From contig NC_092344.1 in the NCBI RefSeq assembly GCF_963676685.1, positions 113,460,001-113,524,000 of the forward strand: 64,000 nt of DNA, read 5' to 3'. How positions within the stretch are numbered: the stretch's first letter is position 1; every line of letters begins with the position of its first letter. Below are positions 16,301 through 61,800 of this stretch, piece after piece. The DNA comes from Mytilus edulis (Eukaryota). Below the pieces are notes generated by a model. The model was not told the origin of the DNA. It searched no databases and was given only the letters and a program-made list of their open reading frames with translations. The position numbers and the translations under genes were made by a program.

Positions 16301-19300
16301 AAAAATAAGTGTAAAAAGTGAAAAAATATCTTTAAAATAGACAGGCAAATTGAAGAATAAAAACATTGTATAAGCTAAAACACAAAGTGTATTTGACGGT
16401 GAAAATATATATGAAATAAAGAAGTACTATTCTGACCTGTCAAAACTGCAGATTGATAAATATGGAAATAATTAAAAAAAAAACTGGAGTTTCAACTGCC
16501 TCACGCAATGTTGATATTCAGTTTTGTAAGAAAGCTTCTCAATTTTCAGTTTCTTTACATAGTCTTGACTTTTCTATGGGTTGGAATACGCATTCATAGT
16601 GACGGTAAACCAAGGAAAGATTTACGAACTCATGCAATTTATAAAAAGTTATTTCTTGAAACTATTGACATTTAAAAAAAAAAATGCCCATCTTAAATCT
16701 ACAAAATGAAGGATAATTTGACCTTATCACATACAATTATATTGTATTAAGATATATTATTGTATATTGTATCAAGATATGTTATTTTATATTGTATTTA
16801 GATATATTATTGTATGTTGCATTAAGATCTATTATTGTACATTGTATTAAGTAATGTATTAAGGTATAAAATCAAAATAATACACTCACTTTGATATTAG
16901 TGGATATAGATACAACCATGAAATGACCTGGAAGTGAACATTTACAAACAGTCTGACTTTCATCTGTTCTTGAAACTGTACATTGATTTTTAGTCCAACG
17001 ACCAAACTGGGGTTCTCTATAATTAAAAAGATAAGGATATATATATTTTTCTAACAAAGATGTTGATTATTTTTATTTTACAATCTGATTTATTATGTCT
17101 CAATGATTTCAAATGTATCACTCATGAGCAATAATTCATAAAAGAGCAGATTACCAATACAAAAGCAAGAGAAACAAAGCATGTTGTGTCGTCAATTGAA
17201 AAGCTGAACTATTAGACGCTTGTAAAAAAAACCAAATCTATATTACTAGTAGTAGAAAAAATGAAATATCATTTTCGAATCTTTTTTTTTATTATTCATT
17301 CTTATTATGTATTGACGTAATGCGCATCTGGTGTAGAAAATTGATACCGTTAATGTTATTACTACCACTGGGTTGATACCTCTGTTGGTGTACGATTAAT
17401 CCACGGACGTATCCCCAACACAGTAGTCAGTACATCGGTACTAGCATGAACATACGTATATTGTGTTACTAAAATTTGTAGTATCAATTTTGGAAATAAT
17501 CAGAAATTAAAGATTATGTCTTACGCCTGCACATATACTTGTTATTTTACTATTATAGTTCTGTGTTGTCGGTTCTACCAGTCTCAATGTTGGTAAAACG
17601 TTCTGGTACAAAAACAAAATAACAGCATTGCAAAGATATTAAAGCTTACCGTTGATCAAACTCCCATGAAACACAGACTGTTTGATTATATTTATTTGTG
17701 GATGACTGCAAAAAAAGAATATGGATATGTTATGAAAATAAAATGAATCACGTAAGGAAAACATCCGGAAAAATTTTTAATGTCATTTAAAGTTGACTAA
17801 CGTTATATAATAGTAATAACTTGTATGCTTGAAAAATTAAGAGCATCACAATACATGCTTTTTTTAACATTAATATCTTGCTCAAAACAATAGTAACACA
17901 CGAGGAAGACTTAATCTACCTGTCTATTTATCCAAGACTACTTACCTGAGTAGTATGTTTGATTGGAATGTAAGCGATGAGATTCTCTGGATGTAGACTG
18001 CTGCCTTGCATAAGGAATATCGAATGGACATCGGAGATAGGAGACAGGAACTTAATGCTGAAATATTTTAAAGTGATCACACTTTCAATGCTTTACAATT
18101 TAAACTTTATGTACTTGTCTAATTAAGATCAAAATAAACTATAAATTACAAAATACTTGGAGCTCGTTCGATTACCATTGCTTATAATAAAAAACTTTTT
18201 GTCGGTCTTATATCTGAGCATTGTACGTTAACTGAATATAAGTGTGCTACGATTTCCTATTATAACCAAAAGAACCACTAAGATATAAATATTGTTTTAT
18301 AATAGCAAGTATCTGCTATTATTGATATCACATTCATCATTTGAACTGGAGCAAAGGTTTTACAAAAAGTAAGAACACAAACAAATATCTTATTTTAGTA
18401 TAATATTTATGTACCTTTTGAGGCTGAATATTGTAAAAGGGTTTATTTTCGAAGCCCAATTGTAATCCAAAGCTTACAATATATATTCGGGTTCATGATT
18501 GACATGTATACTATATTTGGCACATTAATCTCATTCGGTTGGTGTCACATTTGTGTTTATATTGATATATCTATTGTGCTAAAATTTATATTGACAATAA
18601 TTGAACATCCAAATGTTCTTATTCACAATAATTTTTTTTTAATCATATGTCAAGTTCAAAAGTATTCACAAACCTTGGGTTTTGTTCTTTTGCTGATAGC
18701 ATAGACACAATAGCTTTGTTTTTAAATGAGAGAACCTGCAGTTTCTCCATGTCTGAAAACAAATTTTAATAAACTGATTATTTGTCTGCACTTTCTCAAA
18801 CCTCTGAGTTGCAGATTGTGTTTATCACTTACAAAAACTAGTTTATAAAAGATCGAATTATTTATTGAAATACACATATTTTAGACAAATAGGTATGCAC
18901 TACAAGGGTCTCGATGGTCATAGCGTAGAAAGAAAAAAAAACCTGACTATGATTATTTAGTAACAAATGCGACTTAAATAAAATAGACATTTTTTCCTAT
19001 TTTGATCACAGAGACAACATGTAGAACCTATATTGAGAAACTAACATGTCTTATGCCACTACCCCCTTACATAAATTAAAATAGGTCAAAATAACCTGCT
19101 GATGAAGTTTCCTTTTTTATAACTTTCATGAATATTTTTTTTTTCTGTAATCATTTTGGAGAGGCTTGGTCTGATGAAAAGTATAAAGGGGATTTTCTGT
19201 CGAAAAGAATCAATATGTAATAGTCTCTATGCTTTCGCTCTATATTTTTTTAAAACCAATTTTCTACATAAGAAGATACCTGCACTAAGTTCATAATACG

Positions 19301-22300
19301 ACAATTGTTATTCATTCTTTTGATGTTTTTGAGATTTTCATTTTGTCATTTGATTAGTGACTTTTCTTTTTGAATTTTCCTCTGAGTTCAGTGTTTTTGT
19401 GATTTTACTTTTTTTATTCTTATATTTGAAAAAAAACTTTGTTGGCAGAAAAAGATGTGCAGATTTCTGCCAATGTCAATTTTTACTGGTATAATATTCA
19501 AGAAGTATTGTAACAAAACTGATCAAAGATAGCAAGATTAAAAATTTTATACGCTTGACCAGTGTTTCATCGAACATTGGCTTCCAGTCAAAAAGTTACA
19601 AATTAGTAATATCAACATACAAACTACAACTTACCAGTTAAGTATTCTGGTTCTCCTGATTCTGCAGAATCAGCAATACTTGTGTTTGAATTATTTCCAG
19701 TATCGATTTGTACAGGTAATAAATCTGTTTTTACATCTGTAAATAGAACACATTTCGAACTAAACCACAAACTTATAAGAAAACATTTCTTGTTCTTAAA
19801 TATCATCGAATTTCATTAACCCTCAGATCTTCTTAAAATTCGATGGCAAATTCGTAAAACTTCTATGAAAAAAATAACATCCTTCAAATAGTTTTTGGAA
19901 ATCACCATTTTTATATTCTGTATGAGTGCACAGAAACATTTGCTTTGTTCTCAACATTGTAGGTATATATAAGGCATTTGCACTCGTTTACATACTGCAT
20001 ATATGTACAAAATATATATGTTGAAGATACACACTTGTACACACAAGTGTGAGAGGTTTAGCTAGCTATTAAACCAGGTTCTACATTTGAAAATGCCTGT
20101 ACCAAGTCAGGAATATGACAGTTCTTGTCCATTCGTTTTTGATGAGTTTTGTTTTTTGATTTTGCAATGTGATTATTGACTTTCCGAATTGATTTTCCTC
20201 TGAGTTCAGTATTTTTGTGAATTTACTTTTGAATTGTTACCCGATTTAGTTTTTCCGGATAGTTTTGTTTTAGTAAACTTGTAGTTTGTGTGGTCTCAGT
20301 TCTTTATTGGTCAAAACAATACATGATGACGTCATACTTAAACATTTGTTTTGGGTATATCATAGGAATTTTAGTCCTAATTTCGTTAGAAAAACAGATT
20401 CAGTCACATGAACTCGTGCAAAATGGTATTTATCTACATATGGCAGTTGAACATGATAAACTAATAAAAGAACGACAAGCCGCGTGTTACTAATATGAGT
20501 ATTTATCCATTTCAAGTGGAGAAATATCGTATCACACTTGATGTAGTGATGTACTTAATTTTACATCTCAAGCGAGTAGCATGATATAAAAAAATATCAC
20601 AAAAAGAGATAAAAGGAAAAATGCACAAAATAGCGATAATCTATATATATCTTACCTATCGACTCTGAAGTATACTTGGAATCAGGTTCCATGTACAGAA
20701 CACTTGAAATGCTTCTGGATATAATCTGATTTATCTTCAAGAAGTACGGTGCTGCCTTCATATCCTAATCATAACATATAATGCATATTGATCACAAAAT
20801 TATAATTGAGCATAGATTCTAATAATTGTACATCTATGTATTCATTTTCAATTTTATGTTAATGTAAATTATAGTTACGTTTTTGCTTTAGAAGTATCAG
20901 TTTTGATGAAAAGATCCTGCAAAATGCAAATAAAATAAAATGAGGTTAATAAATTAATAAGTATATTACATGATTTGGTATGCCATGGAGAAGAGAATAA
21001 TCAATAAGGAATATTACAATATGAATAATATTCGTTCTCATGTATTAGTCAAATTAATGCAGTAATATTTCGATTCGTTAAGGGATTTTCGAGAGCTTAC
21101 AGGTTCGTACGATATGAACGTAATTTGGTTCTTTTCGGCAGTGTGATGCATTTCTTTATTTCACTAATAATGATTTCGGGAAAAGTTTTGAAATATTTAA
21201 TTTCACCTGTTTTTCCTCCCATGTTGATTGGTTTGCTGCGAACAACATCACGTTCATTAGATCTATGAGTGACTGAAATAAATAATTATATAACAACATC
21301 ACGTTCATTAGATCTATGAGTGACTGAAATAAATAATTATATAACAAGTTAGTGTTTTGTTTTGTAAGACGCAGTAAACAACATCACAATGAACATATTG
21401 AAATAATGACAATATAATTGCTCTAATGTCTTTAAAGATGAAAAACGTACGACAATAATTAGGGACAATAAAAAACGTATTTAGTGATCTCGCATAAAAG
21501 CATGTTTCCTCTTGACAAAAAGATAAGTTTAATGATGATATAATTTCGCCAGAAGTGTCAAATATTAGTATGGGAAACCCTCAAGTTAAGAGTCCGTCTA
21601 AGTATACAAATGATCTAAACATATCACGTACGTATTTTACTATTCATAATTTCTTGCGACTGCTGTCAAACAGTCATAAAATAGCTGAAGTATCTAATAT
21701 TCAGTGACTGCCCGATGATCAGAATAACCTAACTAATAAGCAACCAATTTGCTTTTAACCTTTTTCAAATTGAGAGTCATCGATAAATCTATTGTAGACA
21801 ATGTCCAACGTACAAAATTATACACCCGGTATTTTTAATGAGATTGTTTTTATGTCCGAACCAGTTCTATAATATTGGGCAACAAAACACCACCAAATAA
21901 TATATATGTTTACTTAAAATTTGTTCGAAAAGTTTATCTACAGGATAAACTCCTTGCACGATAGAAAATCAAAATGTAAGATGCATATATATTGCATGGT
22001 TCTTGTTCTAGTTATTAATCTTATAACTTTAGATTTGACTATGTAAACATTTTTTTAAGAGAGATCCGATAGTTCTTACAAGTACATTGTATATGTATAT
22101 GTTAATTGTCACGCTATGGCAGATATTTTTTAAGTTAAGAATATTATAATACACAGGACTAAGTAACTACTAACCTTCAAAGTAATCTTGTCATCTCGGG
22201 CTGACAATTGTGGATATTGTTCCAAATGTCTCAGTAGCTCATGAAGAATGCTAACAGCTAACTCAACATCTCCAGAATACAAGTGGTTATTATTTCTTTT

Positions 22301-31300: not shown

Positions 31301-34300
31301 ATATAAACATCGACGTCGACATAAATTCTTTCTTCCATCTGTAACGGTAACATATAATAGTTTGTTTTGTACAACATATATACAATGCACAGTGAGTTAA
31401 AGGCATTCTTAATGTACTTCTGACATTTAAATATTCTGTTGTTCTCATATAGCAATTTATTGGTGTAATTGTAAACAGAGACAATAATGTTAATTTACTC
31501 CACCACAAAAACATTCAACATAACGTACAGATATTAAAACACCATTACGTAGACATATAAAATATATAATGTAAAATTGCATTGTTTGATTAAGCAAATG
31601 ATAATATATTAACAAGTATGCTTTACTGTCAAAATTTATGTATATTTTCACAGATATATTGAACGATTTCCATTAATCATAATATTAATATAACTTTAGG
31701 TATTCTGAAAGCGACGATATATCTGAAGCTACTCAAATAAGATTGCTTAATCTGACTGTTCTTTTTATTTGGCGACTTTATCAATTAGGTGTAAGTAACC
31801 ATAGTATGTAGCTTCAACATATTGGTATGTAAGACAATGACAAAAATGTGCACGTAATTAATCGTTTTAATTGAGAATTATCAATTTACTTCTTAAAAAG
31901 TCAGAAAAAAGGAAAAGACGAATATTTATTGATGTTAATGATAGCCCTTTAGAGTTTGAAATCAAGTAAGCCCTTTATTATAATAAAGTTTGAAATAAAG
32001 CAGTACAAGACACCAATGATTTGTTTTATTAGTATAACTTTATTTTCATAGAGCATTTGTTTTGCACTGTATGACCACACCAAAGTCTTAAAATTACTTC
32101 AATGTTGATCTAAAAGAACAGCAGATTCTCAGTACTTCTATGAATCTAAAAATAGTAGAGGCTACCTGAGGATAAGGAATTAATGTTCTCTCGGTTTTGG
32201 TTTGTAACCCAGATTTGTTTTCTCTCAATCGATTTAGGACTTTTGAATGCCGGTATACTACTGTTGCCTTTATTATTATTATAATCCTATTTATTTTAAG
32301 TTTTCTCCATGTATTTCAATGATATGCTGGTTTCAAAGTTTAATTTTGGTTACTAATGAACAATTAATACCCTTTTAGGACATTGTACCGGTTATGAAGG
32401 TAAAGTAACATGTATTCTTTTTACGTTTCCGAAAGCAAACTGAAAAGAGAATCTTCGAGGACAAACGTTCCTGTGTCAGGTTATAGGAATTTAACAAATA
32501 TTGTTGGTTTCGAAATTCGTGTGTACTATGCACCATACACTTGCATGCGTCTATAAAACAACAAATTACCAGACAATCTAGTTATACATGAAAACATTTT
32601 TTCCTTTAATAATAGTTTGTTCATGCTAGTAATTAAAATTTATCAATCATTTAAAAAAAATGTGTTTAATTTATCTTAATTCAAAATTGAAAGCAATTTC
32701 TTCGTTAAGTGTTATATAAGTATTGTGGATATATTTTAATGAGTGCAATGCAATATTTCACTTTAACTCGAGTGAGATACGCAACTCATACATCTTTAAA
32801 ACAACACAATTCTTGTTAGTCACATGCAAGCAAGTATACTTACTCTCTAGTCGGTCTACAATAGTTTGGTTTTAATTACATATAGTTTTTATCTGCTTAT
32901 AAAACAGACAGCAACTCAATCTTGTGTCAAAGTTGCTGAATATTTACCTCAAAATGCCTTATAGTAATTCATTTAAAAGTTATTACATCTGGTAAAGGAA
33001 GTCGAATTGTAAAAACATATTGCCCAAAGTATTATAAGACACTAAATAAATGCTTAACTTCATAAACCCATCTTTCGAGAATGATCTTACATCTTCCGGA
33101 CTGGAAAGCAGTGTATACATGTGTATGAAATCCTCTGTAATTAACTACAGTTCTAGGAATATGAACGTACTGTTTTAAAAATCCTCGTTGCGATTTACTT
33201 ATAAACATGTTTGTAATAAAAATTCATTTGTTCTTAAATTCGAATAGTTTGGGAAATTTGGAAACTGGCTCTTTTATAAGTTGCATTTCGAAAGTTTTGT
33301 GAATCGGCATACATAAAGAAAATTAGTTCCTTCTTTAAGGAGAAAGATTTTTTTTTAATCTATAAGACATCTATTGGAAATAACTGCTGTAAGAATATCA
33401 ATCGTTAGATTACAATAATTTGAGAGTGACAATATTAGGGACGCAAAACTTTGGCATGGCTTTTAGAGCTTTAAATAAACTTTGGCTCATTTTTGCCCAT
33501 CTTAGAATTTATGTTATTAACGTCTATAATATAAACTGGGTTTGAAAATATCATTAGCTGAAACCAAGCCAAAGAATAAGAGACAATTATTCAGAATGTT
33601 ACTGTCTTATCATGCTTCACTCAGTAATCTTATGTGTTGCACCCAGATAAATAATTTCATACAAGATGCATTGTCCATTCAAATGAATCAATAAAATTTG
33701 TTAAGTCCATTCGGCACATTCTTTATCTTTATTGAATACCTTACCTGGTACTGACGTTATTTGAAGTGTTTCCATATCCAAGTTAACTCCCTCTAATCTC
33801 CGTAACACTTCTGGTAAGTTGCTGTCTAATATTGATCTTTCAATTGATTCTATGTATAGTCTTATGTCAATGTAGTCTTCTGAATCTTGTCTGTTGATTG
33901 AAATTTAATATGAAAAACAAATAAACAAATAATTTTGGAAACTTGAATTTACGCTTTTCAAAACGGAGAGCGTGAGAAAAATGAATCTACAATCGGTCAT
34001 GTCGATTTTTATTCTTGTATTGAAACCTTTTCAAGTTTTCATCTAAATGTATTCTAAAGAATCATTCTCTCAACATTCTTACGGAGAAACTAAGTTTAAT
34101 TGTCATACGAATGTTAACAAGGTCATCTGCTCAATCATGAAGGGGTAGAAATAATTGTTGGTGTTTTCAGTCCTATTTACCATTGTCTTTTTGCTCAACG
34201 TTTTTGCGGCTAACTGAAGAGTTCAAATCTGATGAGAAAAAAGCTTGATCTGTGCTGTAAATCAAATTTATACAAAATTTCAGTCCTAGTATCTATGGTG

Positions 34301-37300
34301 AGTTTATTTACAACCACTGGATCGATGCCACTGTTGGTGGAGTTTTTATTCCCCGAGGATATCACCAGCCCAATAGTCAACACTTCTGCGTTGAAATGAG
34401 TTTTGAAAAAGATTACAACGACGGGCCACTGATGACGACGCATGTAAAAGCAATAGTTCATATGACTCATTAGGCAAAGTGAGCTTAAAAAAGTTCAATC
34501 TGTAAATTCCCCTTTCCCTTTAACAAATAACCAATGAACCGGAACCGATTCATCAGCATATTTTAAGAGTAGTAACCTGGATGGTGTCACAACTATAGCA
34601 GGAATCCTGACCCTTCTAAAGTATGTGAGTTCACGCCTGAATAAAACAACACGTTAAAAGATGAGATAATTCTATCCAGTTTATATACATAAAGTTATGC
34701 AATACTATCTGTCAATTGTAAATTGTATGTGGCAATGGTTTCATTACTTACCTTATGGTTACGTTTTCTACTGAAAATACTCCTCTCTGTTGTAACATGA
34801 TGTTTATCTACAACAACAAAATCAAAAATTATTGTAAAAGGATATTACTGTTTAATAATAACAATTGATTTAAAAATCAAAAAGAAAAAATCACAAAATA
34901 TATCAAAACTCCGATGAAAATTCAAAACGAAAAGTCCCTAATCAAAGGGCAAAATCAAAAGCTCAAACACATCAAACGAATTGATAACAACTGTTACATC
35001 CCTATTTTGGTACAGACATTAAGAACATGTTCACTTTGATTGTTATGTCCTGTTGGATGACTGTCTTATATTGAATATGATAATCCACTTACTTGTTCCT
35101 TTTCTGATTTCACGCAGTGAACTTCTTTTTATTGTACAAATGTCTCTCAAAGCAATTTCAATACAAAAATGTCAATAATTTTCAGGGTCAATAAAAGAAT
35201 AGACTTACTTTCTGTTGAATAGCATTACGTTCTCCTGAAGTCAGCAATGTTGAACTGTTTTGCAAATCACATCTGATGTCATATTTGTGACGATCTGAAA
35301 ACGCACGAATATAAATATGATAAATTTAATAAACTCGGGCAATATCTCGGTTGATGTTTTTTTTTCATGTTCCGTTTTTTGCGTTTTTGTAAATCAGTTT
35401 GTGACATTTAAGGTTGATCCAGAAATGTGCATTACACAATACACTTTACTTTAAAATACTGAGATGCTTTACCTTTAATATGAACACACGTTCTTTTATC
35501 TATGTTAAGTCTGAAATCATGGTTACAGCTACTTACCAATATGAACACATGTTCTTTTATCTCTGTTAAGTCTTAATCCATGGTTATAGCTACTTACCAA
35601 TATGAACACACGTCCTTTTATCTCTGTTAAGTCTAAATCCATGGTTACAGCTACTTACCAATATGAACACACGTTCTTTTATCTCTGTTAAGTCTAAATC
35701 CATTGGTTACAGCTACTTACCAATATGAACACATGTTCTTTTATTTCTGTTAAGTCTAAATCCATGGTTACAGCTACTTACCAATATGAACACATGTTCT
35801 TTTATCTCTGTTAAGTCTGAATCCATGGCTACAGCTACTCATCAATATGAACACATGTTCTTTTATTTCTGTTATGTCTAAATCCATGGTTACAGCTACT
35901 TACCAATATGAACACACGTTCTTTTATCTCTGTTAAGTCTGAATCCATGGTTACAGCTACTCATCAATATGAACACATGTTCTTTTATTTCTGTTAAGTC
36001 TAAATCCATGGTTACAGCTACTTACCAATATGAACACATGTTCTTTTATTTCTGTTATGTATAAATCCATGGTTACAGCTACTTACCAATATGAACACAC
36101 GTTCTTTTATCTCTGTTAAGTCTAAATCCATGGCTACAGCTACTTACCAATATGAACACACGTTCTTTTATTTCTGTTAAGTCTGAATCCATGGTTACAG
36201 CTACTCACCAATATGAACACATGTTCTTTTATTTCTGTTAAGTCTAAATCCATGGTTACAGCTACTTACCAATATGAACACATGTTCTTTTATCTCTGTT
36301 AAGTCTGAATCCATGGCTACAGCTACTCATCAATATGAACACATGTTCTTTTATTTCTGTTATGTCTAAATCCATGGTTACAGCTACTTACCAATATGAA
36401 CACACGTTCTTTTATCTCTGTTAAGTCTGAATCCATGGTTACAGCTACTCATCAATATGAACACATGTTCTTTTATTTCTGTTAAGTCTAAATCCATGGT
36501 TACAGCTACTTACCAATATGAACACATGTTCTTTTATTTCTGGTATGTATAAATCCATGGTTACAGCTACTTACCAATATGAACACACGTTCTTTTATCT
36601 CTGTTAAGTCTAAATCCATGGCTACAGCTACTTACCAATATGAACACACGTTCTTTTATTTCTGTTAAGTCTGAATCCATGGTTACAGCTACTCACCAAT
36701 ATGAACACACGTTCTTTTATCTCTGTTAAGTCTAAATCCATGGTTACAGCCACAAGAAGCAGTAGAAATCTTGCTTGTTATACAGGTCTGTTCACAGTCT
36801 AATACTGCGCATGCTATAAATAAAATATTATGATTAGATACGACCATAAAACAAAAGGAGATAAGTGGCAAGGTTAGACAAGGCACCCACCAAAACAGCA
36901 AATGTTTGCAAATTGCGGCATGAAACTATTCAAAACTTTGAATGAAAGTTTAATAGGTTTCACAGTTTCATTGACAAATAATATTTTGAGTATTACAGCA
37001 TATTTTTTCTTCAAACACATCCTGAAATAGGCAAACAGCCTTTTAAAAGTCTGAATATTATACACATCTAAAAAATTTATATCATTAACATTATAAACAA
37101 TTCATAGTTGTTTAACCAATAAATATTGAGAGCAATATTTTAATATCTGATAAAAACACTTGTACTATTACATTTTAGTGGTATCTAAAAAAATGTCCAT
37201 GAACTCGCAAGTATCTAAAGATGAGTTTTCGTTTCAAAGTTCAGCTTAATGTAGCAGTGAAAATTACAGTATTTTTATTAATTACTTTTTCAACTCAATA

Positions 37301-41969: not shown

Positions 41970-42885
41970 GCAGTAGACATGTGTCTATATACTATGTCAA
42001 CAGACATGTGTCTATGCAATATGTCAACAGACATGTGTCGATACAATATTTCATTAGACATGTGTCTATTTACTATGTCAACATACATGTGTCTAATTAC
42101 TATGTCAACAGTAATGTGTCAATACAGTATGTCAACAGACATGTGTCGATATAATATGTGAACAGACATGTGTCTATATATTTTCTCAACAGACAGGTGT
42201 CTATATACTATTTCAACAGACATGTGCCGATAAAATATTTCAACAGACATGTGTCTATATATTATGTCAACAGACATGTGTCGATACAATATTTCAACAG
42301 ACATGTGTCTATATACTATGTCAACAGACACGTGTCTATGCAATATGTCAATAGACATGTGTCGATACAATATTTCAACAGACATGTGTCTATATATTAT
42401 GTCAACAGACATATGTAGATACAATATTTCAACAGACATGTGTCTATATACTATGTCAACATACATGTGTTTATGCAATATGTCAACAGACATGTGTCTA
42501 TATAATGTCACCAGACAGGTGTCGATACAATATTTCAACAGACATGTGTCTATATACTATGTCAACAGACATGTGTCTTTGGAATATTTTGACAGACATG
42601 TGTTGATATATACTATATACTATGTCAACAGACATGTGTCGATACAATATGTCAACATACATGTGTCTATGCAATATTTGAACAGACATGTGTCTATATA
42701 TACTATATCAACAGACTTGTGTCTATGTAATATGTCAACAGACATGTGTCGATACAATACTTCAACAGACATGTGTCTATATACTATGTCAACAGACATG
42801 TGTCTATGCAATATTTGAACAGCCATGTGTCGATATATATTATGTCAACAGACATATGTGTTTATGCAATGACAAAAGACAGGTT
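41970..42885. repeat. 27-bp minisatellite (ATGTCAACAGACATGTGTCTATATACT), roughly 33 copies
   Basis: Directly visible. The period is divisible by 3, which explains the repetitive ORFs in the track. Confidence 0.93.
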
Positions 42886-48100: not shown

Positions 48101-50044
48101 TGAGCAAAACTGAATTGAATAAAAGGACAAGGCACATCTATGCTTAGTAGGTACACAAATCTGCATAGGTAACTTATAAACCCGCGCGAACAAACGAGCG
48201 CCTCTTATAGTCTAATAACACACGTCCGAATCATCATGTTTCTAGATCGAGTTAAAATTTTATTTCTTTTATAAGAGCAAATATTAAAAAGACAAAACCC
48301 TTGTGATATTATAAAGAAAGCATTCCTGTGTTATTCAATGACAAATATAGGTTTACATTCGAATGTAACTGAATAATTTATGAAGACTTTAACAGAAGAT
48401 CTTCATCAACGGATATAATTTAAAACATGAATTTATAAAATATCTCTTTCTCAGTCTCTTTCAAAACAAAAGACTTCGTATATAGAAATAAGAAGATGTG
48501 GTATGAGTGTCAATGAGACAACTCTCCATCCAAGTCAAAATTTATAAAAGTAAACTACTATAGGTCAAATTATGTTCTTCAACGCCGGAATATGTATATA
48601 TATATAAGTGCATGTGTAAGATGTCAATTGTTAAATTCAATTATTCTGATCAATTACGACAGACCTTAACATATTCATCTAACTTTAGAAATAACATGAT
48701 TAAGAAGTCTGTAAAGATCGTTAGTAAACATGTTTATTTTCTTGTAATAATCTGGAAAGCAACACTCAGCTTGCTCTAAACTAAACAAAGAAGGTGAATT
48801 ATATTTTGCTGGTTCATGGTCACGAAGGACAAAAAACACTTGAAGTCACACAACCTGCACATGTATTTGTCTGTAAGTCGATAAGTTTCTCAATCAATTC
48901 TACTAAAACATGTTCGAAACATACGTATTTTATCCGTTTTACCGAAAATCAAAGAACTGACTTACAGTTAACTCGGATTGTCCAAAGATATGTTGACAGA
49001 CGAGTTAATAATAGGGACTGCAATCTCACTGAATACGATAAGCAGCAACTGAGTTAGTGGTGTTTAATTGAAGTGCAGTGTTAAAAAAAAAAGCGAAAGA
49101 TACCAGAGGGACATTCAAACGCATAAGTTGAATATTATTAGTAACATAGTGTGTTAGTGACCTAATATGATATATACAGGGTCAGTAAATTCCATATGGG
49201 GTGAGAGCAAATTCACATCGTATACTCACTAAACATTAGATCAATCAGTAGTTTTATAGTAAAATTTTAAGTTTCAGCATCTAGTTTTAAAAGTACATGT
49301 AGCCGCACTAGCCGGTTGGTGTTTAACCACATGTGTTTAGTCAGATGGTTTCCAGTAAAACATAGGATTTTAAGTCCACAGGTACCTAAAGTACTTAATT
49401 ATGCTTAATAGATCGTTAACATAATATGAAATCATTTTGGTCATAAAATTACTTGCTAACTTGCTAATTTGCTGCGTATCAAATCTCGATATATAACACT
49501 CAGAGCAAATATGACCCGACATAATAACATATAATCGATTCTCGAATATCAAAAAAATGTATTTAGATGCGTATAATCAGTCACACTTAAAAGCATGTGG
49601 GAAGTTTAATTGTGTAGCAGTTGGTAGCATGACGATAACCCTGTCAGAATGATTACCGATCTATTTGGAACCCGGCCTTCATCTTCCAAAAAACGCCACA
49701 ATAAAAATAAACCAACTATTCGCGCATGGTTCATAATCGTTCCGTACGTGCTCTGTAATACTCCAGTTATATTTAGTGATGGGGAAAACGATAGTACTCA
49801 CTACCACCATAAGAGACAATACTATCATTTTACATGTTTTATGAATTTACTTCTTCATAAAATAAAAAATCCAAGAAAAACAAGATAGTTATGTGTGGTA
49901 GTCGTGCTCTTTATCATTCTGTTTAAAAAAAATTGAAATAGAACGACCGTATTCTTTTTGAATTGTTTCCATAGCAACCTTTATTTAAGAAGCATATTTG
50001 AAGACGAAAAAATCCTACTACCACATTCAATCCCAGCGTACCAA

Positions 50045-50215
50045 AATTGACTGCCTTCACACAAGTGGGTACGCAAAAAGGCAAGATAACGCGAGGGACC
50101 AAAGTTGACCTTCTTCACACGAGTGGGTACGCAAAAGGGCAAGATAACGCAAGGAACCAAAGTTGACCTCCTTTTCACGAGTGGGTACGCAAAGGGGCAA
50201 GATAACGCCAGGAAA
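50045..50215. repeat. ~59-bp tandem repeat x3
   Basis: GAGTGGGTACGCAAAAGGGCAAGATAACGC-like core repeated three times. Confidence 0.8.
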
Positions 50216-52842: not shown

Positions 52843-55213
52843 CAAGGATTTGTATTGTTGAAGACCTTATATTGTTCCTGTTTAGTGTAGGCCGTATGAG
52901 ATAAGTTTTGTAGTTGGATTGCAGCTAAATTTTCTTTCAGTTACTTTGGTTGTTGGTTTGCTGTCTTTAATATTGACATGTTTAGACCTCACATCTCCTG
53001 TATAACATATTTTTAAAGGTCAATTGAAATATTTTAGAGTGACAGTAGTAGTTGTAAAGCAGTGTTATGAAAGACAATAAATAAAAAGACATTTACACAT
53101 TTCACTTTTTTTTAAATATTCATACAACAGTTACATCAAGATCATGTGGAAACAATTTAAATAATTATATTTCATGTATGAACAGAACAAAACTAAATGT
53201 CACAGTGTCAACAGTTTAAAGATTTCTCCTTTAAGGCTTGTCTTAGACTGGATGAGGGTTGAGATTTTGCTTTCTTGGTCAGTTTATTGCGTTCTATACG
53301 AGTAACAGCAAAGCCACGGATGGTTAAAAACAAATGAATGATGTCTTCAGTTATAGCTGACACAATATCTGCAGTTTCACCTTGCATAAGAATGTCACAA
53401 TAATGTTTTACCATGAACCCTTCCATCATAGCTTCTTTTAAAGGATCAATAAGAAGCGAACTAGCACTATATGAAGGTTCAACTGTTTTGCGAATAATTG
53501 TCTCTAATTCACGGATTAATAAGAACAGGGAATCTGATGGTTTCTGAAGGCCACCACGGTCTTGTGTCTTATACCACTTGTCATATTGTTTCACAAAGTT
53601 AACACCTGAAGAATTGTCTGTAAATTTATTTATGACGGACAACTTCTTAGTAGAGTACCTGGTGTATCTCTTCTGTAGAGCACGAATGGTGTAACCAGCA
53701 ATATAATACAGAATGCTTTGGTCATTTTCTGTTAACTTTTCCTGATTTGATGTTGATTTCTGAACAGCTGTCATTGTTTGAACTTTAAAAATTTCACCAA
53801 CAATATCCTCATGTACCATCTGTAGGAATAAGTTGGTATGGTTCAATGAGTGAGATGGACAATGCGAGTGAAAAGTGTTTGTCAATTCTGGCTTTACTCT
53901 ACTTATGTGTAAACGGCGAAACATTTGCTCTTTGTCACATGAGGAAGATATGTTGCTTGTAGTTTCAACAAATATCGGCTGAAAATATTTCAACAAAATG
54001 TCTTGCACTACTGCTGAATTGCTCACAAATTTGCAAATGTCTGTTATGCTGTCATTGATGGTAAATGGATCATTAGCAATGTTGGACAAACTGGACTGCA
54101 AAGCTGTAGGGAATATTTCAGCAAATGAACTTTCATTTAAGGCGTCACGGACTGTGCTAGGTAGTTTACTATCTGCATGTGTGCGATGGTCTGTTGCTCT
54201 CAAATTCTGTCCATGTTGTTTCTGGACATGACCACGGAAGCCTGAAATTGTTTTCAGAGTCTTTTTGCAAACAGGACAAGTGTATGAAGGTTTAATACAT
54301 GTATCTGGTACAGGTTCAGACTTTTTCTTTTTGGCAATGTAACATTCTTCATCACTGTCACTGGGTTCTGGATCATACTCAGTATATTCACCTAACAAAA
54401 GATCAAGGTCAATATCTTGGTCCCAGGATAAAAAATCTGACATGGTTGTAACATTGAATAATAATTTGTACTGAAAGTTGATTACTAAATATTCCATTTT
54501 ATAATATATCTAAGCTTGTTCTGATACTGAGATCAAAGACTTCATTTAATTAATCATCTTGATTTTTTTTAAATTAAATGTTATGTTTTGAGATTAAAGG
54601 TTGTAATTTATTTAATTATATATATTCTTCACTAATTAATCTAATCACCACAAAAGTATATTTCAATTACAAACAGTTCCTTGCATAATTAATAAAAAAA
54701 CAAAGAACTATTAAAAAAAACAGAAAGTCAAACAACAAGCTGTGACAATCAAATAATTATTTCATCTTCCTCTTTGAGTAAATGATTATTATGAAGATAA
54801 TAAATGACTACCAAAACTGCGGTCACATGAGGGGGAAAACTCAATATTTTTTATCTTTTTCCGGGATGAATATCAAATTTACAAACTTAATTTAATTTTA
54901 ATACGAAAATTTCACAAATAAACTTTATAAACGCCAACTTTTCCTTTTGGTCTATTTAGGTAATTATCACTTTGTAATTTAAGAGAAATAAGAATTGTTT
55001 TATCGGTAAGTCTACACAAAACTAATATCGTAAAAAGATCGTAAGATCGTAGCTTACCATGTGTATTTTCATAACGTTGTTAACCAAGCGATAAAACCGG
55101 ATATTTACAATACAAGCGAGTATCATGGTATAAGTGGCGAGTTTACGACTTCTCACGATACGCGAGAACTAATGAGATACCGCGAGATTCCAATCCTTCT
55201 ATACAAATCCTTG
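52843..55213 (-). mobile_element. 2.37-kb P-superfamily-like DNA transposon derivative
   Basis: Perfect 13-bp TIRs CAAGGATTTGTAT (52843-52855 and 55201-55213). 7-bp direct repeat ATCAACA at 52836-52842 and 55214-55220. Confidence 0.8.
53208..54470 (-). CDS. C2H2 zinc-finger protein with a P-element/THAP9 transposase C-terminal-like region (~410-420 aa)
   Basis: Long intact ORF with CPVC...HVQKQH and LYYIAGY...W...DRGGLQKPS motifs. Probable upstream exon ending ATG|GTAAGC at 55058-55060, spliced to a tttcag acceptor at 54470. An alternative start is the internal ATG (MSDFLSW). Confidence 0.8.
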   Translation of the reverse strand, partial: YKLLFNVTTMSDFLSWDQDIDLDLLLGEYTEYDPEPSDSDEECYIAKKKKSEPVPDTCIKPSYTCPVCKKTLKTISGFRGHVQKQHGQNLRATDHRTHADSKLPSTVRDALNESSFAEIFPTALQSSLSNIANDPFTINDSITDICKFVSNSAVVQDILLKYFQPIFVETTSNISSSCDKEQMFRRLHISRVKPELTNTFHSHCPSHSLNHTNLFLQMVHEDIVGEIFKVQTMTAVQKSTSNQEKLTENDQSILYYIAGYTIRALQKRYTRYSTKKLSVINKFTDNSSGVNFVKQYDKWYKTQDRGGLQKPSDSLFLLIRELETIIRKTVEPSYSASSLLIDPLKEAMMEGFMVKHYCDILMQGETADIVSAITEDIIHLFLTIRGFAVTRIERNKLTKKAKSQPSSSLRQALKEKSLNC

Positions 55214-56414
55214 ATCAACATGATAAACCATGATTTTCGAATTCAGTAATAATTGTTCAGAGAAAACTTAACGATGTTACCCTATAATATTATATACGCT
55301 TCAGATTTAAAGACTTATAAATAATGCCGAAATATATCCAAGTTCAAACAATCAGCTCACTAATTTCAAAACTATCAATCCCATCATTAATATTCATGTA
55401 CAGTAAATGCTATATGAATTATTATAAAGTAATTTCAAGCTTATAATACAGAAACGATTTTCTGTGAAAAATTGACAACCACTGACTATCATATCTATAG
55501 GCCTTTAATAGACCTGTAATTATGTTAATGGTGTCCAGCTGAATGCTGACATTTGAAATAATAACGGACACATAGACAACTGCCTTCTGTGTTAAAATAT
55601 CTAATTTGTATCTCACTTTTGACCTTTAAGATGCTTATGGAGAATAACTGATTTAATTTCAAATTCAATAATTTATAAAGTATACTAGGTATCCAGCAAT
55701 GCTGGTAATGTTTTTTTTTAACTAATAATCGTATGAAAGCTAAGATAAATGTCAGTTTTATATTTATTCCAGTTCAAACTGACATCAATGCGGATAGCGA
55801 CACAAACATTGAGATATATTACATGAGCATGATCTTAAACATTACTTTTGGTTACATTACTTCTGCCCGTGACAATCATAAGAAAGACTCCGTGAATGGG
55901 GCATTAGTCTTTAAAAGTACGATTCAGGGCAACACCATAGAACAGTTCCTTTAAGTCAAACTAATTTGACGAAAATTTACTTGAATCGAAACAATGCTTA
56001 ACAAAAATTATGATTAATATTCAAAATTTGCAGGTTTCATCTCTTTTAAAAAAAAATCTTCTGACGAGAAAAAGCAAGCAACAATTCCGCTACAAGACCA
56101 AGTTACGACCTTACCTTTATTTATTTCAGCCCCTGTCTGTGTACGGAGGCATTTGTCTTACCCATTATCACGTGTATCAGGAATGATCATGAATCATTTA
56201 TAGAAAAAAAATTGGAATTTTTATGGTTTGAGTTGCGGCCCCTGACTAAGGTAACGGGTCTGTGAGTAGCTCTGCAAAAAATAGACTTTTAGTATCAATT
56301 CTCGGTGAATATCGAATGCAGATTATTTAAAATCGTAAAGAATACAAGTAATGATAAACATTCACTCGTAAAATTGCATTTGCAATTTAAAACTACCAAG
56401 ATATTTCAGTGAAC

Positions 56415-57698
56415 ATGACCAAATCAAACACGCAAGAAGAATCCAATATGGCGTCGTATGCCGAAGCATTTAAAAGAGGTCCTAAATCAGAAACAACTGA
56501 CTCTCTGTCCTCTGTTAAACCAGTGTTTGTTGAAGAATCAGACGTCTTTAGTCATATCCCCAAAGAAGCCACTAGAGGCTTATTTTTAACCATATCTGAA
56601 ATGTACAAGGCTGTAGGTGCAGTCGTGCCAGACAGATCAGTTATGGGCCTTCAGAGAATTAAAGGTCTGTGGAGGATATATCTCGACACATTAAAAGGAA
56701 AAGAATTTCTCCTTTCAGAAGGTCTTGAAATTCGAGGCAAATCTATCTCTATATACTCTATCAATCCTAGAGTTCGCATACAAGAAAATTCAACAGATGT
56801 GAAAATTCGCATTAAAGATGTACCACTCTCGGCTGACGATGGACAGATTTTGAGAGCCTTAGAGGGGTACAATTGTGTAATTTTGAAGCACTTAAGAGAA
56901 AGGTTACGTTACAATGATATGATAACAAACTGTCAAACTGGTGACAGAATAGTTTATTGTGAAGGTCCATTGATCTCTGCTATTCCAAAGTCCATTCCAA
57001 TTGGGAAATATAGAGCAACGGTTATATACAGAGGTCAACAAAATGACAACATTAAATGCAACAAGTGCATGGAGCTCGGACACACAACCAAAAATTGTGA
57101 AAATGATTGGAAGTGTAGAATCTGTGGTGAATCAGGCCACAGGCAAAATGAATGCACCAGTGAAATGCCTTCTGAACAGGAGCAAGAAGGTGCCACAAGC
57201 ACACATCATGAAAATCATTATGACCCGAGTGATGTAAACACACAACAACCAACAAACAACAATGAAAACATTGAAGCTATGCAACCAACTGAACATGAAG
57301 CTCATGCAGAAAATGATTCTGCCTCAGATACAAACAATCACGATGATTTTATAAGATCACAATCAATCTTCTTCGATGACCAGATCTCTAGTCCTATATG
57401 TGATCAACAAAATCAACCTCTGTCAGCAAGACCGAAAATAAAACCAGGTAGAAGGGAAACGAACAAATCCTCACATACATCCAGTGAGGCTACCAGCAGA
57501 AATTCCCGTGGTCAATCACAAATCACCAGTTTTATTAACGGTCCAAACCAGTCTACACGTAGAAACCAACATCAAGATACTCCGGTCAAAACTTCAAACA
57601 GAAGTGGTTTAGAGAAGTCTCCAGTGACGCCCACAGAGAAACTACATGATGGTGCCAGTAACAACAAAAGTAAAAAATCGAAAACAACGAAAACCTAG
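56415..57698 (+). CDS. ORF1p: RRM-like region, two CCHC zinc knuckles, disordered basic tail
   Basis: CNKCMELGHTTKNC and CRICGESGHRQNEC, with an N-terminal SYAEA motif. First ATG at 56415, second at 56448. Confidence 0.92.
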   Translation: MTKSNTQEESNMASYAEAFKRGPKSETTDSLSSVKPVFVEESDVFSHIPKEATRGLFLTISEMYKAVGAVVPDRSVMGLQRIKGLWRIYLDTLKGKEFLLSEGLEIRGKSISIYSINPRVRIQENSTDVKIRIKDVPLSADDGQILRALEGYNCVILKHLRERLRYNDMITNCQTGDRIVYCEGPLISAIPKSIPIGKYRATVIYRGQQNDNIKCNKCMELGHTTKNCENDWKCRICGESGHRQNECTSEMPSEQEQEGATSTHHENHYDPSDVNTQQPTNNNENIEAMQPTEHEAHAENDSASDTNNHDDFIRSQSIFFDDQISSPICDQQNQPLSARPKIKPGRRETNKSSHTSSEATSRNSRGQSQITSFINGPNQSTRRNQHQDTPVKTSNRSGLEKSPVTPTEKLHDGASNNKSKKSKTTKT

Positions 57699-57798
57699 AG
57701 TGATCATTATATTGAACATTGAAATTAACACTTAATCTATTTCAATCTAGTTGATATTATATGTAATTTTTATCATATAAAAAAAAATATATAAAAAA

Positions 57799-58782
57799 AT
57801 GTCACTGTATATAACACTTTTCACTTTTTCTTTTCTCATTATTGGTATATATTTAGAATGTAGTCCGCTGTATTCTAATTTTCTGATTTTGGCAAGTGAT
57901 ACCTATCACAGATTAAAAAGTAAAGAAACTGTAAAATACAAAACATTTAATTGGTATCAAACTACTTATTTTTTACAATCATTATTATCAAACACACTGT
58001 TAAATGTTTCCAGTAATGCTACATTGGAAAAAATCCAATTTTTATTAATCTGTTCATGTTTCTTCATTCAAATTCAGTCAGAGAGGTCTTCTTATCCTAC
58101 AAATAAAAATAAATATTTTTTACCATGTATGTATATAAAAATTGTTCTTTTTTTTAAAATTGATTTGCATATGTATTTCAATATGAAACACATAAATAAT
58201 TGTACTTGTATTTGTTTAACAAACATTGAGTGTGCTAAAATTAAGAGGCACATGTCAATGTCTGTTTTTGAAGTCACATGGATGACCCAAATAATGACCC
58301 ATGGGGTATATGTAAAAGAAAACAATAGATTGTATTTATTTACGAATGTAACTTGTTGTATGTTTTTAATAGAAACAAATTGTGTTAACACTTTACTTGT
58401 GAATACATGTAAAAACATTCAAATGAAATACGCTTTTCTTCCTTTTTGCAAAAGGATTGTAAAGACAAATACAGGTAAAAATTTTACCCTATTTATAAAC
58501 ATTATTTACAAAGATAACAATCATGACAATCAGAACATTGTCAAAAGTAAAAATTGTATAAACTTTAAAATAAACAATTTAAGTTTCAAATGTAGAAGAA
58601 AAAACAGTAGCTTATGCTTATTCATTAGACAAATCGTAGATAAATGTCCTAGAACAGACAAAAGTAATAAAAATAAAACAACTGAAAAGATGTCTATTTA
58701 TAGTCTCGTGCTCTGTGAAGGTCAACTTCAGTGTGACCCAATTGTATCACTAAACGGGAATTTACCTATGTTAATTTTTTAA
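57799..58782 (+). CDS. Unassigned 327-aa ORF between ORF1 and ORF2 (hydrophobic N-terminus, Cys/Asn-rich)
   Basis: ATG-initiated, sense-strand, stop-free for 327 codons in very AT-rich DNA. It fills nearly the whole spacer. No recognisable domain. Confidence 0.55.
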   Translation: MSLYITLFTFSFLIIGIYLECSPLYSNFLILASDTYHRLKSKETVKYKTFNWYQTTYFLQSLLSNTLLNVSSNATLEKIQFLLICSCFFIQIQSERSSYPTNKNKYFLPCMYIKIVLFFKIDLHMYFNMKHINNCTCICLTNIECAKIKRHMSMSVFEVTWMTQIMTHGVYVKENNRLYLFTNVTCCMFLIETNCVNTLLVNTCKNIQMKYAFLPFCKRIVKTNTGKNFTLFINIIYKDNNHDNQNIVKSKNCINFKINNLSFKCRRKNSSLCLFIRQIVDKCPRTDKSNKNKTTEKMSIYSLVLCEGQLQCDPIVSLNGNLPMLIF

Positions 58783-58834
58783 AATACACATAACACAGTA
58801 AGAGACTACAAATAAAATTAACTACTCACCAACC

Positions 58835-61800
58835 ATGGTATTTAACAAACATCTTCATATCTGTACAGTTAATTGTAAAGGTCTGCAACAATCTGATAAA
58901 AGAAAAAGATTAATTGAATGGTCTAAATCCCAAAAATGTGACATTCTTCTAATGCAAGAAACACACTTTACAGATAGTTTAATAAATAATTTAAATACTG
59001 AATTTGAAGGTAAACTTTTACTGAGTAATGGTTCTAGCAATTCAAGAGGTATTGCCATATGGCTGAATAAAAATTTAAACTTTAAAATAATTGATGACTT
59101 TAAAGATAAAGAAGGAAGACTTTTACTTGTTAATATTGAAATAAATGATACTATAATAACAATAGTTAATATTTATGCACCAAACAATCCTAAAAGCAGA
59201 AATACTTTTTTCAAAACTGTCCATACATTAATAGAAGAAAAAAGTTTAGGTCAACTTATTCTAGGAGGAGATCATAATGAAATTTTATCACAAATTGATT
59301 CAAAAAGTAAAACTAAACAACAAAAAAATAGGAAAAAAGTTCACAATTTAAATAAACTTATAAAGTCATTAAAACTCAATGATGTATGGAGAACAAAAAA
59401 TCCAAATAAAGTTCAATTTACATGGAGCAGAAAAGATAGGTCAGAGTCAACAAGAATAGATTATTTTTTAATAACTCCAGAAGTATTCAAAAACTGTGTT
59501 TCATGTGACATTAGACCAATAGTATTACAATACACAGACCACAACTGTGTTTCTTTAAAAATAAATCTTAACAGAGGCCAAAAAGGAAAAGGATACTGGA
59601 AATTAAACAGCAGTGTACTTCAAAATGAAGACTTTACTGAAATAATTAGGAAATTAATTAAAAAATTTAAAAACAAAGCTAAAACAAGAACAGATCTTGA
59701 CATACTGTGGGACAATTTCAAAATAGAAGTTAGAGACCAGACAATAAGCTATTGCAAAACAAAAGCTAAGAATAAAAAAAACCTTATCAGCAAATTGGAA
59801 AAAAATTTAACACAATTAAATGATATTATTGATACATGTAACAATAAAAACAATAATAATATATTAAAAGAAATAGATAATATAGAAAATGAAATAGGAA
59901 AACTCTATAACGAAAAAATAAAAGGGAATCAAATAAGAGCAAGGGTAAAATGGGTTGAAGAAGGAGAAAAAAATTCTGCATATTTTCTAGGGATGGAAAA
60001 ATCAAGACAGAGTAGAAAAACAATAACCCAATTATATGATGATAAAGGTCAAATTACAAGGGATCAAGACAAAATATTACAATTAGAAGCAAATTATTAT
60101 AAAAAATTATATTCTACAAAAAACCCTGAAATAGAAGCAACTAAAAAGTATTTAGATTCTCTCAAGGAATATAAAAAATTAAATGATTGTGAAAGTAATT
60201 CTTGCGAAGGGGAAATAACTGTTGATGAATGTACTGATGCAATTTTTAAAATGAAACTTAATAAAGCGCCTGGGCTTGACGGACTTAATGTGGAATTTTA
60301 TAGAACATTCTGGGATGAACTTAAATCTTTTATAGTCTCCACATTCAATTACTGCTATGAAAAAAGAGAACTATCTAACACTCAGAAAGTTGGCTTAATA
60401 TCTCTAATTTATAAAAAGAATGACCCCTTTTCACTTGACAATTATAGACCTATTACTCTTTTAAACTATGATGCTAAATTACTTGCTTATGCCTTAGCAC
60501 AAAGATTAAAACCCCTGCTACCAAAGATAATAAATACAGATCAAAAAGGATATGTCAAAAATAGATATATTGGTTTCAACATTAGACAAATACAAGATGT
60601 CATCGACTATTCTGAAACTTTCAAAATTGATGGGGCAATTTTATTTCTGGATTTTACAAAAGCATTCGACTCATTAGAATGGGACTTCATGTTTGAGACT
60701 TTAAAAAAATTTGGATTTAAAGATAATTTTATAAGGTGGGTTCAGACAATGTACTCTGATATTAAAGGATGCATTATTAATAATGGATGGGTTTCCTCTC
60801 GCTTTAGGGCATCTCGCGGGATCCGACAAGGATGTCCGTTATCATCATTACTATTTGTTCTAGCTGTAGAAGTTATGGCAATAAAGATAAGGGAAAATAA
60901 AAACTTAAAAGGCATAGAAATAAAATTAGATGGTAAGAGTAACACCCTGAAAATCTGCCAATTAGCTGACGACACTACTCTATTTCTTCAATCAAAAAAA
61001 GATGTATCTCTAGCAATTAATCTAATAGAAACATTTGGTACTCTCTCCGGTTTGAAATTGAATAAAACAAAAACTGAAGGAATATGGCTTGGTCAATTAA
61101 AACACAGTCGGGAAAAATTTGAAAATATAAATTGGTGTACTGCACCAATCAAAAGCCTCGGAATTTACTTTGGTTACAATAAACAAGAATGTCAAAAACT
61201 TAACTTTGAAAAACAACTGTTAAAAAGTAAAAAAATAATATCTGATTGGAATAGAAGAAACCTTACTATCATAGGAAAAATAGTTGTCATCAAATCTTTA
61301 GTTTTACCAAACCTAACATATGTTGCATCAAACACTATTATTCCTAAGGAAATGTTGCAAGACTTTAAAACTATAATATACAATTTTATTTGGAAAGGCA
61401 AAAGAGATAGAATAAAAAGATCAACACTTTCAAACAATTTTCTAGAAGGTGGACTTAAAATGACGGACATTGATGCTTATATAAAATCATTACATATCAA
61501 CTGGATTCTTAAATTAAGTGAAAATAAAAATGACAACTGGACAATAATTCCCAAATTTTACTTCAACAAATTAGGAAAAAATCTTCTTGTATTTAAAATG
61601 AATTTAAAGAATATAAACGACATTGATAAAAGTAAGTTACAGTATTTACCGGAATTCTATAAACAACTACTTAAAGATTGGATAAGTGTAAAGGGAGGTA
61701 ATACAAAATATCCTAAAAATTTTCTTGAAATTAGAAAACAAGTTTTGTGGGGAAATGATAATATCCGGTTTAATGGAAAATGTTTAAACTTTGATGATTG

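Follow-up and report, generated by a model that had tools for sequence, protein, structure and literature searches.

The third intron of an adhesion-GPCR-like receptor gene of Mytilus edulis is largely made up of a minisatellite whose first unit is the end of the preceding exon together with its 5' splice site. By its anatomy, this array belongs to the exon-intron boundary minisatellites, a kind of repeat that has already been described. It is probably removed whole with the intron, with the authentic donor dominating over those repeated downstream. The array was studied within a window of 64,000 nt (contig NC_092344.1, 113,460,001 to 113,524,000), in whose coordinates all positions are given.

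Anatomy of the host gene and its array

The host gene spans 6754-41292 (-) and comprises 30 exons that encode a CUB domain, three EGF-like modules, two Ig domains, a GAIN/GPS region and a 7tm_2 domain. When joined, the exons translate without a stop into 1438 aa, 1437 of which are identical to the 1442-aa protein P0002 (labelled Mytilus edulis), and the first coding exon is a 100% match to this protein. The remaining P0002 residues are provided by a 12-nt AG/GT micro-exon at 32855-32844 (-), the inclusion of which suggests that P0002 is a transcript-based gene model. This micro-exon (32844-32855) inserts four residues ahead of the first Ig domain and is lacking in P0003 (Mytilus coruscus) and P0004 (Mytilus galloprovincialis). 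A 33-nt exon at 26918-26889 (-) likewise occurs in P0002 but not in P0003, and the first Ig exon ends in a GC donor, GAG/GCAAGT, at 29394 (-) (here and below, the slash marks the exon-intron boundary).

When P0002 was compared with Pfam, the secretin-family 7TM domain (PF00002) scored 53.6 bits over residues 978-1181 against a cut-off of 20.6, and the GPS (PF01825) scored 25.1 bits, over its cut-off of 22.5. CUB and Ig also exceeded their cut-offs, while GAIN (PF16489) scored 21.2 bits, below the 26.5 cut-off; the EGF-like modules fell below theirs, yet their cysteine pattern is present. Judged by this domain content, the host gene is an adhesion-GPCR-like receptor. Relatives of P0002 were found in other molluscs, nemerteans and arthropods (51 matches), and the family, mostly unnamed, reaches insects and crustaceans. 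The consensus for GPS cleavage includes a Thr or Ser; the GPS motif of P0002 (residues 913-954) reads GHFMV, without Thr/Ser, and the receptor may not self-cleave.

The array occupies 35466-36750 (-) and consists of 21 head-to-tail units of 61 bp, as established by unit-by-unit reading and by Tandem Repeats Finder (period 61, 20.9 copies, 92% matches and a score of 2166 over 35477-36750). Only unit 18 (62 bp) and unit 21 (64 bp) depart from the standard length. Each unit contains 54 nt from the end of exon 3, the third EGF exon (CNHGFRLNRDKRTCVHI plus one base), followed by 7 nt of intron. Exon 3 itself (117 nt, 36697-36813 [-]) encodes the third EGF-like module and matches P0002 residues 253-291 at 100%. 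Its last 54 nt belong to unit 1 (36750-36690), which straddles the authentic exon-intron boundary and carries the true exon end, TTG/GTGAGT, with 36696 as the first intron base. Copies take up 1224 nt (87%) of the 1402-nt intron.

Using a matrix built from the gene's 28 other donors, we obtained a score of 9.26 for the authentic donor (36691-36699 [-]), above those of 12 of the 28; donor 1 is thus a site of ordinary strength for the host gene. The GT is kept in 16 of the 20 downstream units: 14 have TTG/GTAAGT, unit 9 has TTG/GTGAGT, and unit 21 has AAG/GTAAAG. The other four carry a dead TTG/ATGAGT, with first intron bases at 36452, 36330, 35964 and 35842. Among the pseudo-donors of units 2 to 20 (35531-36638 [-]), the common GTAAGT copies score 10.44, so that donor 1 is only 1.2 bits below them. 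The motif G/GTRAGT occurs 16 times in the 1285-nt array, compared with 10 times in the remaining 33,251 nt of the gene span. Local folding prediction made no donor of the array stand out, and predicted accessibility (0.013 for donor 1, 0.003-0.083 for the copies) gave donor 1 no advantage. Mini-exons within the array were also considered, as an AG follows each donor, but were set aside because the preceding sequence is purine rich and lacks a pyrimidine tract.

AATAAA is present in 10 of the 21 units (units 2, 4, 5, 7, 9, 10, 12, 13, 15 and 17), including all four with dead donors, and reaches a density of 7.8 per kb in the array versus 1.8 per kb in the rest of the gene. The last unit (unit 21, 35466-35529 [-]) is divergent, with substitutions of its own and a 3-nt insertion, and passes into unique intron at a boundary crossed by an independent DNA contig. 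The unique remainder of intron 3 (35295-35465 [-]) ends in the acceptor TTTTCAG, the last intron base of which, 35295, lies 178 nt from the unit-21 donor. Exon 4 follows (35209-35294 [-], DRHKY...), spliced to exon 5 in one RNA-like contig.

A sequence-only reading of this DNA had described the intron after the EGF3 exon as mostly a 61-bp array, with the real exon end as its first unit, amplified ~21-fold. This description was correct in each detail checked: its approximately 15 downstream GT donors, mainly GTAAGT, number 16 by our count, the four ATGAGT units lie within one base of where it had placed them, and the last unit reads AAG/GTAAAG, as it had reported. The full seven-pass receptor, the occurrence of AATAAA in 10 of 21 units and an 8-unit higher-order duplicate, described below, go beyond it.

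The array in other animals and its origin

To follow the array in other animals, we used its 560 distinct 31-letter words, 24 of which come from the exon alone, giving an expected share of 0.04 for a sample that contains only the exon. Sixteen of the 24 listed runs, from 9 studies with five organism labels and a gill metagenome, contained 0.23 to 0.40 of the sampled array words; no listed run contained half of them, and one may be the window's own source. The share was below 0.2 in four further runs (X17 to X20), with X18 and X19 being left out of evidence, and four others had none. Contigs from 4 of the 24 runs were aligned to 33700-35600, which covers the last two units (20 and 21) and the three exons that follow; these are exclusively short-read contigs, for which missing cover proves nothing (for example, no exon was covered by contigs in X13). 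A 562-nt contig of the DNA run X1 (34967-35547) ran from the unique intron through unit 21 and reached unit 20; it differs by 3 substitutions and 19 gap letters and is another haplotype crossing the distal end of the array. Contigs continued into further units in three of the four aligned runs, and summed contig depth was 82 to 121 over the units versus 4 to 8 over the unique flank, a ratio that is not a copy number.

These contigs also carried the unit variants of the window in similar shares: A at position 30 in 63/127 of the summed depth versus 10/21 window units, G at position 41 in 57/124 versus 10/21, and G at position 57 in 51/192 versus 6/20. The array is therefore real and common to other animals, and its presence is not the assembly artefact that the sequence-only reading had named as one way in which its proposal might fail, given the array words in 16 of 24 runs and the X1 contig over the distal boundary. 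The exact 8-unit duplicate could come from over-expansion during assembly, and a read spanning the whole array was not seen among the contigs. Nevertheless, with array words far above the exon-only expectation in 9 studies, contigs extending into the units and agreement in unit-variant shares, there is next to no chance that the array is an artefact or much shorter than assembled.

The higher-order structure consists of an 8-unit (488-bp) block present twice, as units 1 to 8 and 9 to 16 (35775-36750 [-]), with lag-8 differences of 2, 0, 0, 1, 0, 0, 0 and 0. The mean number of differences was 1.08 at lag 8 versus 3.3 to 4.2 at ten other lags, and a weaker 2- and 4-unit pattern was also observed; judged by this near-identity, the block duplication is recent. 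Units 1 to 20 contain only 12 distinct substitutions, several of which change residues and one of which kills the GT. The four dead donors correspond to a single change (G55A), as do the ten AATAAA (G30A), each amplified. One GT-killing change per 12 over 61 positions is at chance level, and the substitutions thus appear to carry no sign of selection. Since the GT-killing rate equals chance and several changes alter residues, both the donors and the coding frame look unconserved.

The two ends of the array suggest how it may have arisen. The exon sequence upstream of unit 1 ends in GTG, as opposed to GTA in the copies, and unit 21 reads GTAA-AG where the copies read GTAA-GT. Given that 3 + 54 + 4 = 61, we infer that the duplicated segment spanned from the GT in the exon to the GTAA of the old intron. 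A tandem duplication of this 61-nt segment, which joins the final 57 bases of the exon to the first four of the intron (GTAA), would have founded the array, and unequal crossing-over would then have amplified the units, lengthening the intron from ~180 nt to 1402 nt. Since the segment begins with GT, each joint reads GTAA+GT, and the duplication joint itself therefore seems to have created the consensus donor of the copies. The old intron start, GTAAAG, would survive in unit 21, which is probably its remnant. The presumed old donor, TTG/GTAAAG, scores 5.53 (above 1 of the 28 other donors), compared with the 9.26 of unit 1 and the 10.44 of the common copy. In the search for an array-free orthologous intron, the unit-joint pattern gave 0 matches in JGI metagenome contigs, and scanning proteins with the exon-3 frame produced 486 pattern matches, none of which was confirmed; neither approach yielded such an intron.

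Near-copies of splice sites were found at 3 of the 58 sites of the gene versus 5 of 300 random places (P = 0.12, Fisher test) and are not rare in the host gene. The donor at 10843 (-) is followed 43 nt into the intron by a second exon end and donor, TTG/GTAAGT, at 10800; P0002 uses the first. An acceptor and exon start of the same gene are duplicated as an exact 51-bp copy at 21241-21347 (-), where use of the upstream AG (21324 [-]) would insert 17 in-frame residues into the GAIN region. P0002 shows the single form and hence uses the downstream AG, at 21273.

Elsewhere in the window, other minisatellites lie at 41975-42859 (27 bp), 5664-6547 (20 bp), 8187-8313 (29 bp), 16738-16851 (25 bp) and 50040-50214 (58 bp). 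None of these five overlaps a splice site of the host gene; the one at 8187-8313 starts a few bases past the donor at 8320. Intron 5 contains two dispersed repeats of very high copy number (34290-34400 and 34907-34995), which matched thousands of contigs in all four aligned runs. A LINE-like element at 56391-62662 (+) appears intact: a 435-codon frame bears a CCHC knuckle, and endonuclease, reverse transcriptase and zinc-binding domains are encoded in a second frame of 1287 codons. An intronless 433-codon frame at 53211-54509 (-), with a C2H2 finger and a weak match to the P-element transposase C terminus, all below cut-off, is probably transposon derived.

The read-through product and donor choice

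An in-frame TAG lies two codons beyond the end of exon 3 (36689-36691 [-]). Translation past donor 1 gives a product of 293 aa that ends CVHIGE-stop, matching the earlier prediction of Gly-Glu-stop after ~293 aa. Use of donors 2, 3 and 4 would extend exon 3 to 178, 239 and 300 nt, respectively, and use of the last donor would extend it to 1341 nt; every downstream donor retains the in-frame TAG at 36691-36689. A stop upstream of later exon junctions is expected to lead to nonsense-mediated decay. Since the TAG precedes all later junctions (there are 26 later introns), the products of downstream donors should be decayed. It had been proposed that these donors yield either a decay target or a secreted fragment; the retained stop fits this logic, and decay rather than a stable secreted protein is to be expected. 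A stable 293-aa form would need intronic polyadenylation or cleavage inside the array, the first AATAAA of which, at 36660, lies 28 nt beyond the in-frame stop.

All three Mytilus models (P0002, P0003 and P0004) read CVHI-D-RHKY, the register produced by donor 1, and this register is shared with 13 of 13 other aligned homologues, although protein models are blind to decayed isoforms. Among 157 proteins, a count that leaves P0002's 19 cluster members outside, none was truncated just past the CVHI motif, and 0 of 105 short homologues ended just after EGF3. Short homologues of 260 to 370 aa were considered as a conserved soluble form and rejected, as they do not end at the EGF3 boundary.

Contigs from RNA-like runs bear on the same question. 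In X17, which is RNA by guess, a 166-nt contig (depth, 3.5) joined exon 4 to exon 5 over a GT-AG intron and departed from the reference at 35295, the acceptor at which it is spliced, with 9 letters beyond this point; over these letters, donors 1 to 20 are indistinguishable. In this one contig, the match stops at a base that would fit a donor preceded by TTG; with the AAG of unit 21, it would be expected to continue for one more base. No joint of unit 20/21 to exon 4 was present among the joints listed in the four runs. Two further contigs of X17 have a depth of 2 each, one lying in the array and the other, 151 nt long and unspliced, covering unit 21 and the intron. X20, which is RNA on record, had an array-word share of 0.04 and an array contig, but its contigs covered no exon. 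DNA or pre-mRNA, pooled over 21 copies, would account for these contigs of both runs, as might intron retention. Telling the donors apart takes at least 62 nt upstream of the junction, where GGTAAGTA identifies a copy and unique exon-3 sequence identifies donor 1; unit 2 is marked by G30A, 24 nt before the junction.

Precedents, alternative explanations and significance

The 37-bp VNTR of human F7 intron 7 has a first unit that spans the exon-intron boundary (Borensztajn et al. 2006, PMC1557585), and like the mussel array, it repeats the donor along the intron; its normal product comes from the first donor, the one that the Mytilus models also use. In the available portion of that paper, F7 pseudo-sites function once the preceding sites are mutated, with only the most upstream one being used, and minigenes kept to the upstream site unless a perfect site faced a weak one; pseudo-sites with values up to CV 91 did not compete with the authentic site of CV 74, while perfect sites took 70 to 90%. 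The mussel array differs in having 21 units of 61 bp with 54 of 61 nt exonic, versus 4 of 37 nt in F7, and in having copies slightly stronger than the real donor, whereas the F7 copies are identical; their silence has been shown in F7 and would extend to the mussel by analogy. CBS intron 13, IFI6 (6-16) intron 2, LMNB2 and PDGF intron 4 likewise carry 10 to 25 copies of a boundary unit. As far as the same source goes, two pseudo-sites are used besides the real one in CBS and IFI6, and only the real site is used in LMNB2 and PDGF (PMC1557585). The CBS unit, an exon end plus 7 intron bases in 16 to 21 copies (PMC2630376, in part), has the same plan as the mussel unit.

In an invertebrate, the amphioxus "mirages" of the Adh3 and globin genes are minisatellite-like duplications across 5' or 3' boundaries that differ in length between haplotypes and leave splicing undisturbed, according to the portion of PMC3087553 available. 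As in the mussel array, where unit 21 stands apart, their boundary units lie outside homogenization. Amphioxus is a cephalochordate in which haplotype length variation has been shown, while the mussel is a mollusc. We found no earlier mussel case of a boundary minisatellite in the open-licence literature, and the part of PMC10078293 available holds nothing on donor-repeating arrays.

The explanation that we consider probable is that the mussel array is a boundary-spanning minisatellite (a "mirage" of the F7-IVS7 type) that is removed whole with the intron while donor 1 dominates. Going by these precedents, the 117-nt exon would be defined with the most upstream donor, and the copies would be competent and nearly unused. 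Rare slips to the copies would carry the stop and be degraded, and copy number would have little or no effect on the receptor. The three Mytilus models in the donor-1 register, the 13 of 13 homologues, the lack of a truncated form among the proteins surveyed and the F7 and amphioxus precedents all count for this explanation. So do the unbroken frame of the window's exons, the one X17 contig whose stopping base fits a TTG donor, the ordinary strength of donor 1, the lack of signs of selection on the copies and the frequency of splice-site near-copies in the host gene. Counting against it are the copies that outscore the real donor (10.44 versus 9.26), the use of two pseudo-sites in CBS and IFI6 in the part of PMC1557585 available, the fact that the F7 work was done in mammalian cells rather than in molluscs, and the array sequence in two RNA or RNA-like runs (X17 and X20).

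The same scores could mean that the donors leak, with the nearest copies (units 2 to 4, giving exons of 178 to 300 nt) taking a real share of splicing and decay slightly lowering receptor mRNA, perhaps by allele. The copies are 1.2 bits above a real donor that gains nothing from accessibility, CBS and IFI6 use two pseudo-sites each (PMC1557585, in part), and a cited title ties the CBS repeat to reduced enzyme activity. No such junction was present among the contigs listed, a comparison of weak power, and F7 pseudo-sites up to CV 91 failed to compete in the portion of PMC1557585 at hand; if the leak were confined to the first few copies, total copy number would hardly matter. We regard leakage on this scale as unlikely. 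An effect of the array on exon definition, or its action as a sink for U1, would cause in-frame skipping of exon 3, with the loss of one EGF module, or slow removal of the intron. Exon 3 is 39 codons long with equal phase at both ends, and F7 exon skipping increased as upstream sites were inactivated; that skipping, however, required a mutated authentic donor (PMC1557585, in part), exon 3 is kept in all three Mytilus models, and 16 extra sites per pre-mRNA would be trivial relative to cellular U1. Such an effect is exceedingly unlikely.

A regulated soluble ectodomain would instead require cleavage at one of the ten AATAAA, yielding a short polyadenylated mRNA, not subject to decay, for the 293-aa CUB-EGF-EGF-EGF protein, with U1 sites gating the choice and the mix of units setting the ratio. 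The placement of the first AATAAA 28 nt past the stop, the density of this signal, its presence in all four dead-donor units and the share of the AATAAA variant in another animal, roughly half the summed unit depth (63/127), are consistent with this proposal. In the parts of the sources available, 51.5% of the tabulated adhesion GPCRs are predicted to have soluble N termini produced by premature stops (PMC11039983), and a functional truncated Cirl isoform (1TM) occurs in flies (bioRxiv 2023.01.11.521585); the intronic stop of the mussel gene could likewise give an ectodomain-only product. Those forms come from transcript data and are presented there with no mention of a repeat, whereas for the mussel array no such transcript was seen among the contigs and no such protein among the 157 surveyed. 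Dense U1 sites should suppress cleavage. The ten signals are G30A amplified and the four dead donors one change more, so they are not independent; 0 of 157 proteins end at the stop, and none of the 105 short homologues stops right after EGF3. The array contigs of the RNA runs (depth, 2 to 4.5), without exon cover in X20 and beside unspliced intron in X17, look as if they came from DNA or pre-mRNA. Tuning of a soluble ectodomain by the array is thus unsupported, and we hold it to be very unlikely. Its fullest form is equally improbable: each unit would act as a switch, with a U1 site and, in half, a poly(A) signal at least 28 nt past the stop, and how many live-donor, dead-donor and AATAAA units there are, and in which order, would set a heritable dial between the full receptor and a secreted 293-aa CUB-EGF3 decoy, kept because the joint replaced a weak ancestral donor (5.5 bits) with a consensus one.

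If polyadenylation within the array were true, a minisatellite would be connected with a soluble form of a receptor, which would be of real interest. By its anatomy, the array extends to a mollusc a kind of repeat previously described in human and amphioxus genes. It also offers a naturally occurring system for testing how 5' splice sites are chosen outside mammals, with 16 competent donors 61 nt apart, 14 of them slightly stronger than the authentic one and private substitutions serving as marks. The last donor is only 178 nt away from the acceptor, so that a first-come scanning model and a model of cross-intron pairing would favour donors at opposite ends of the array.
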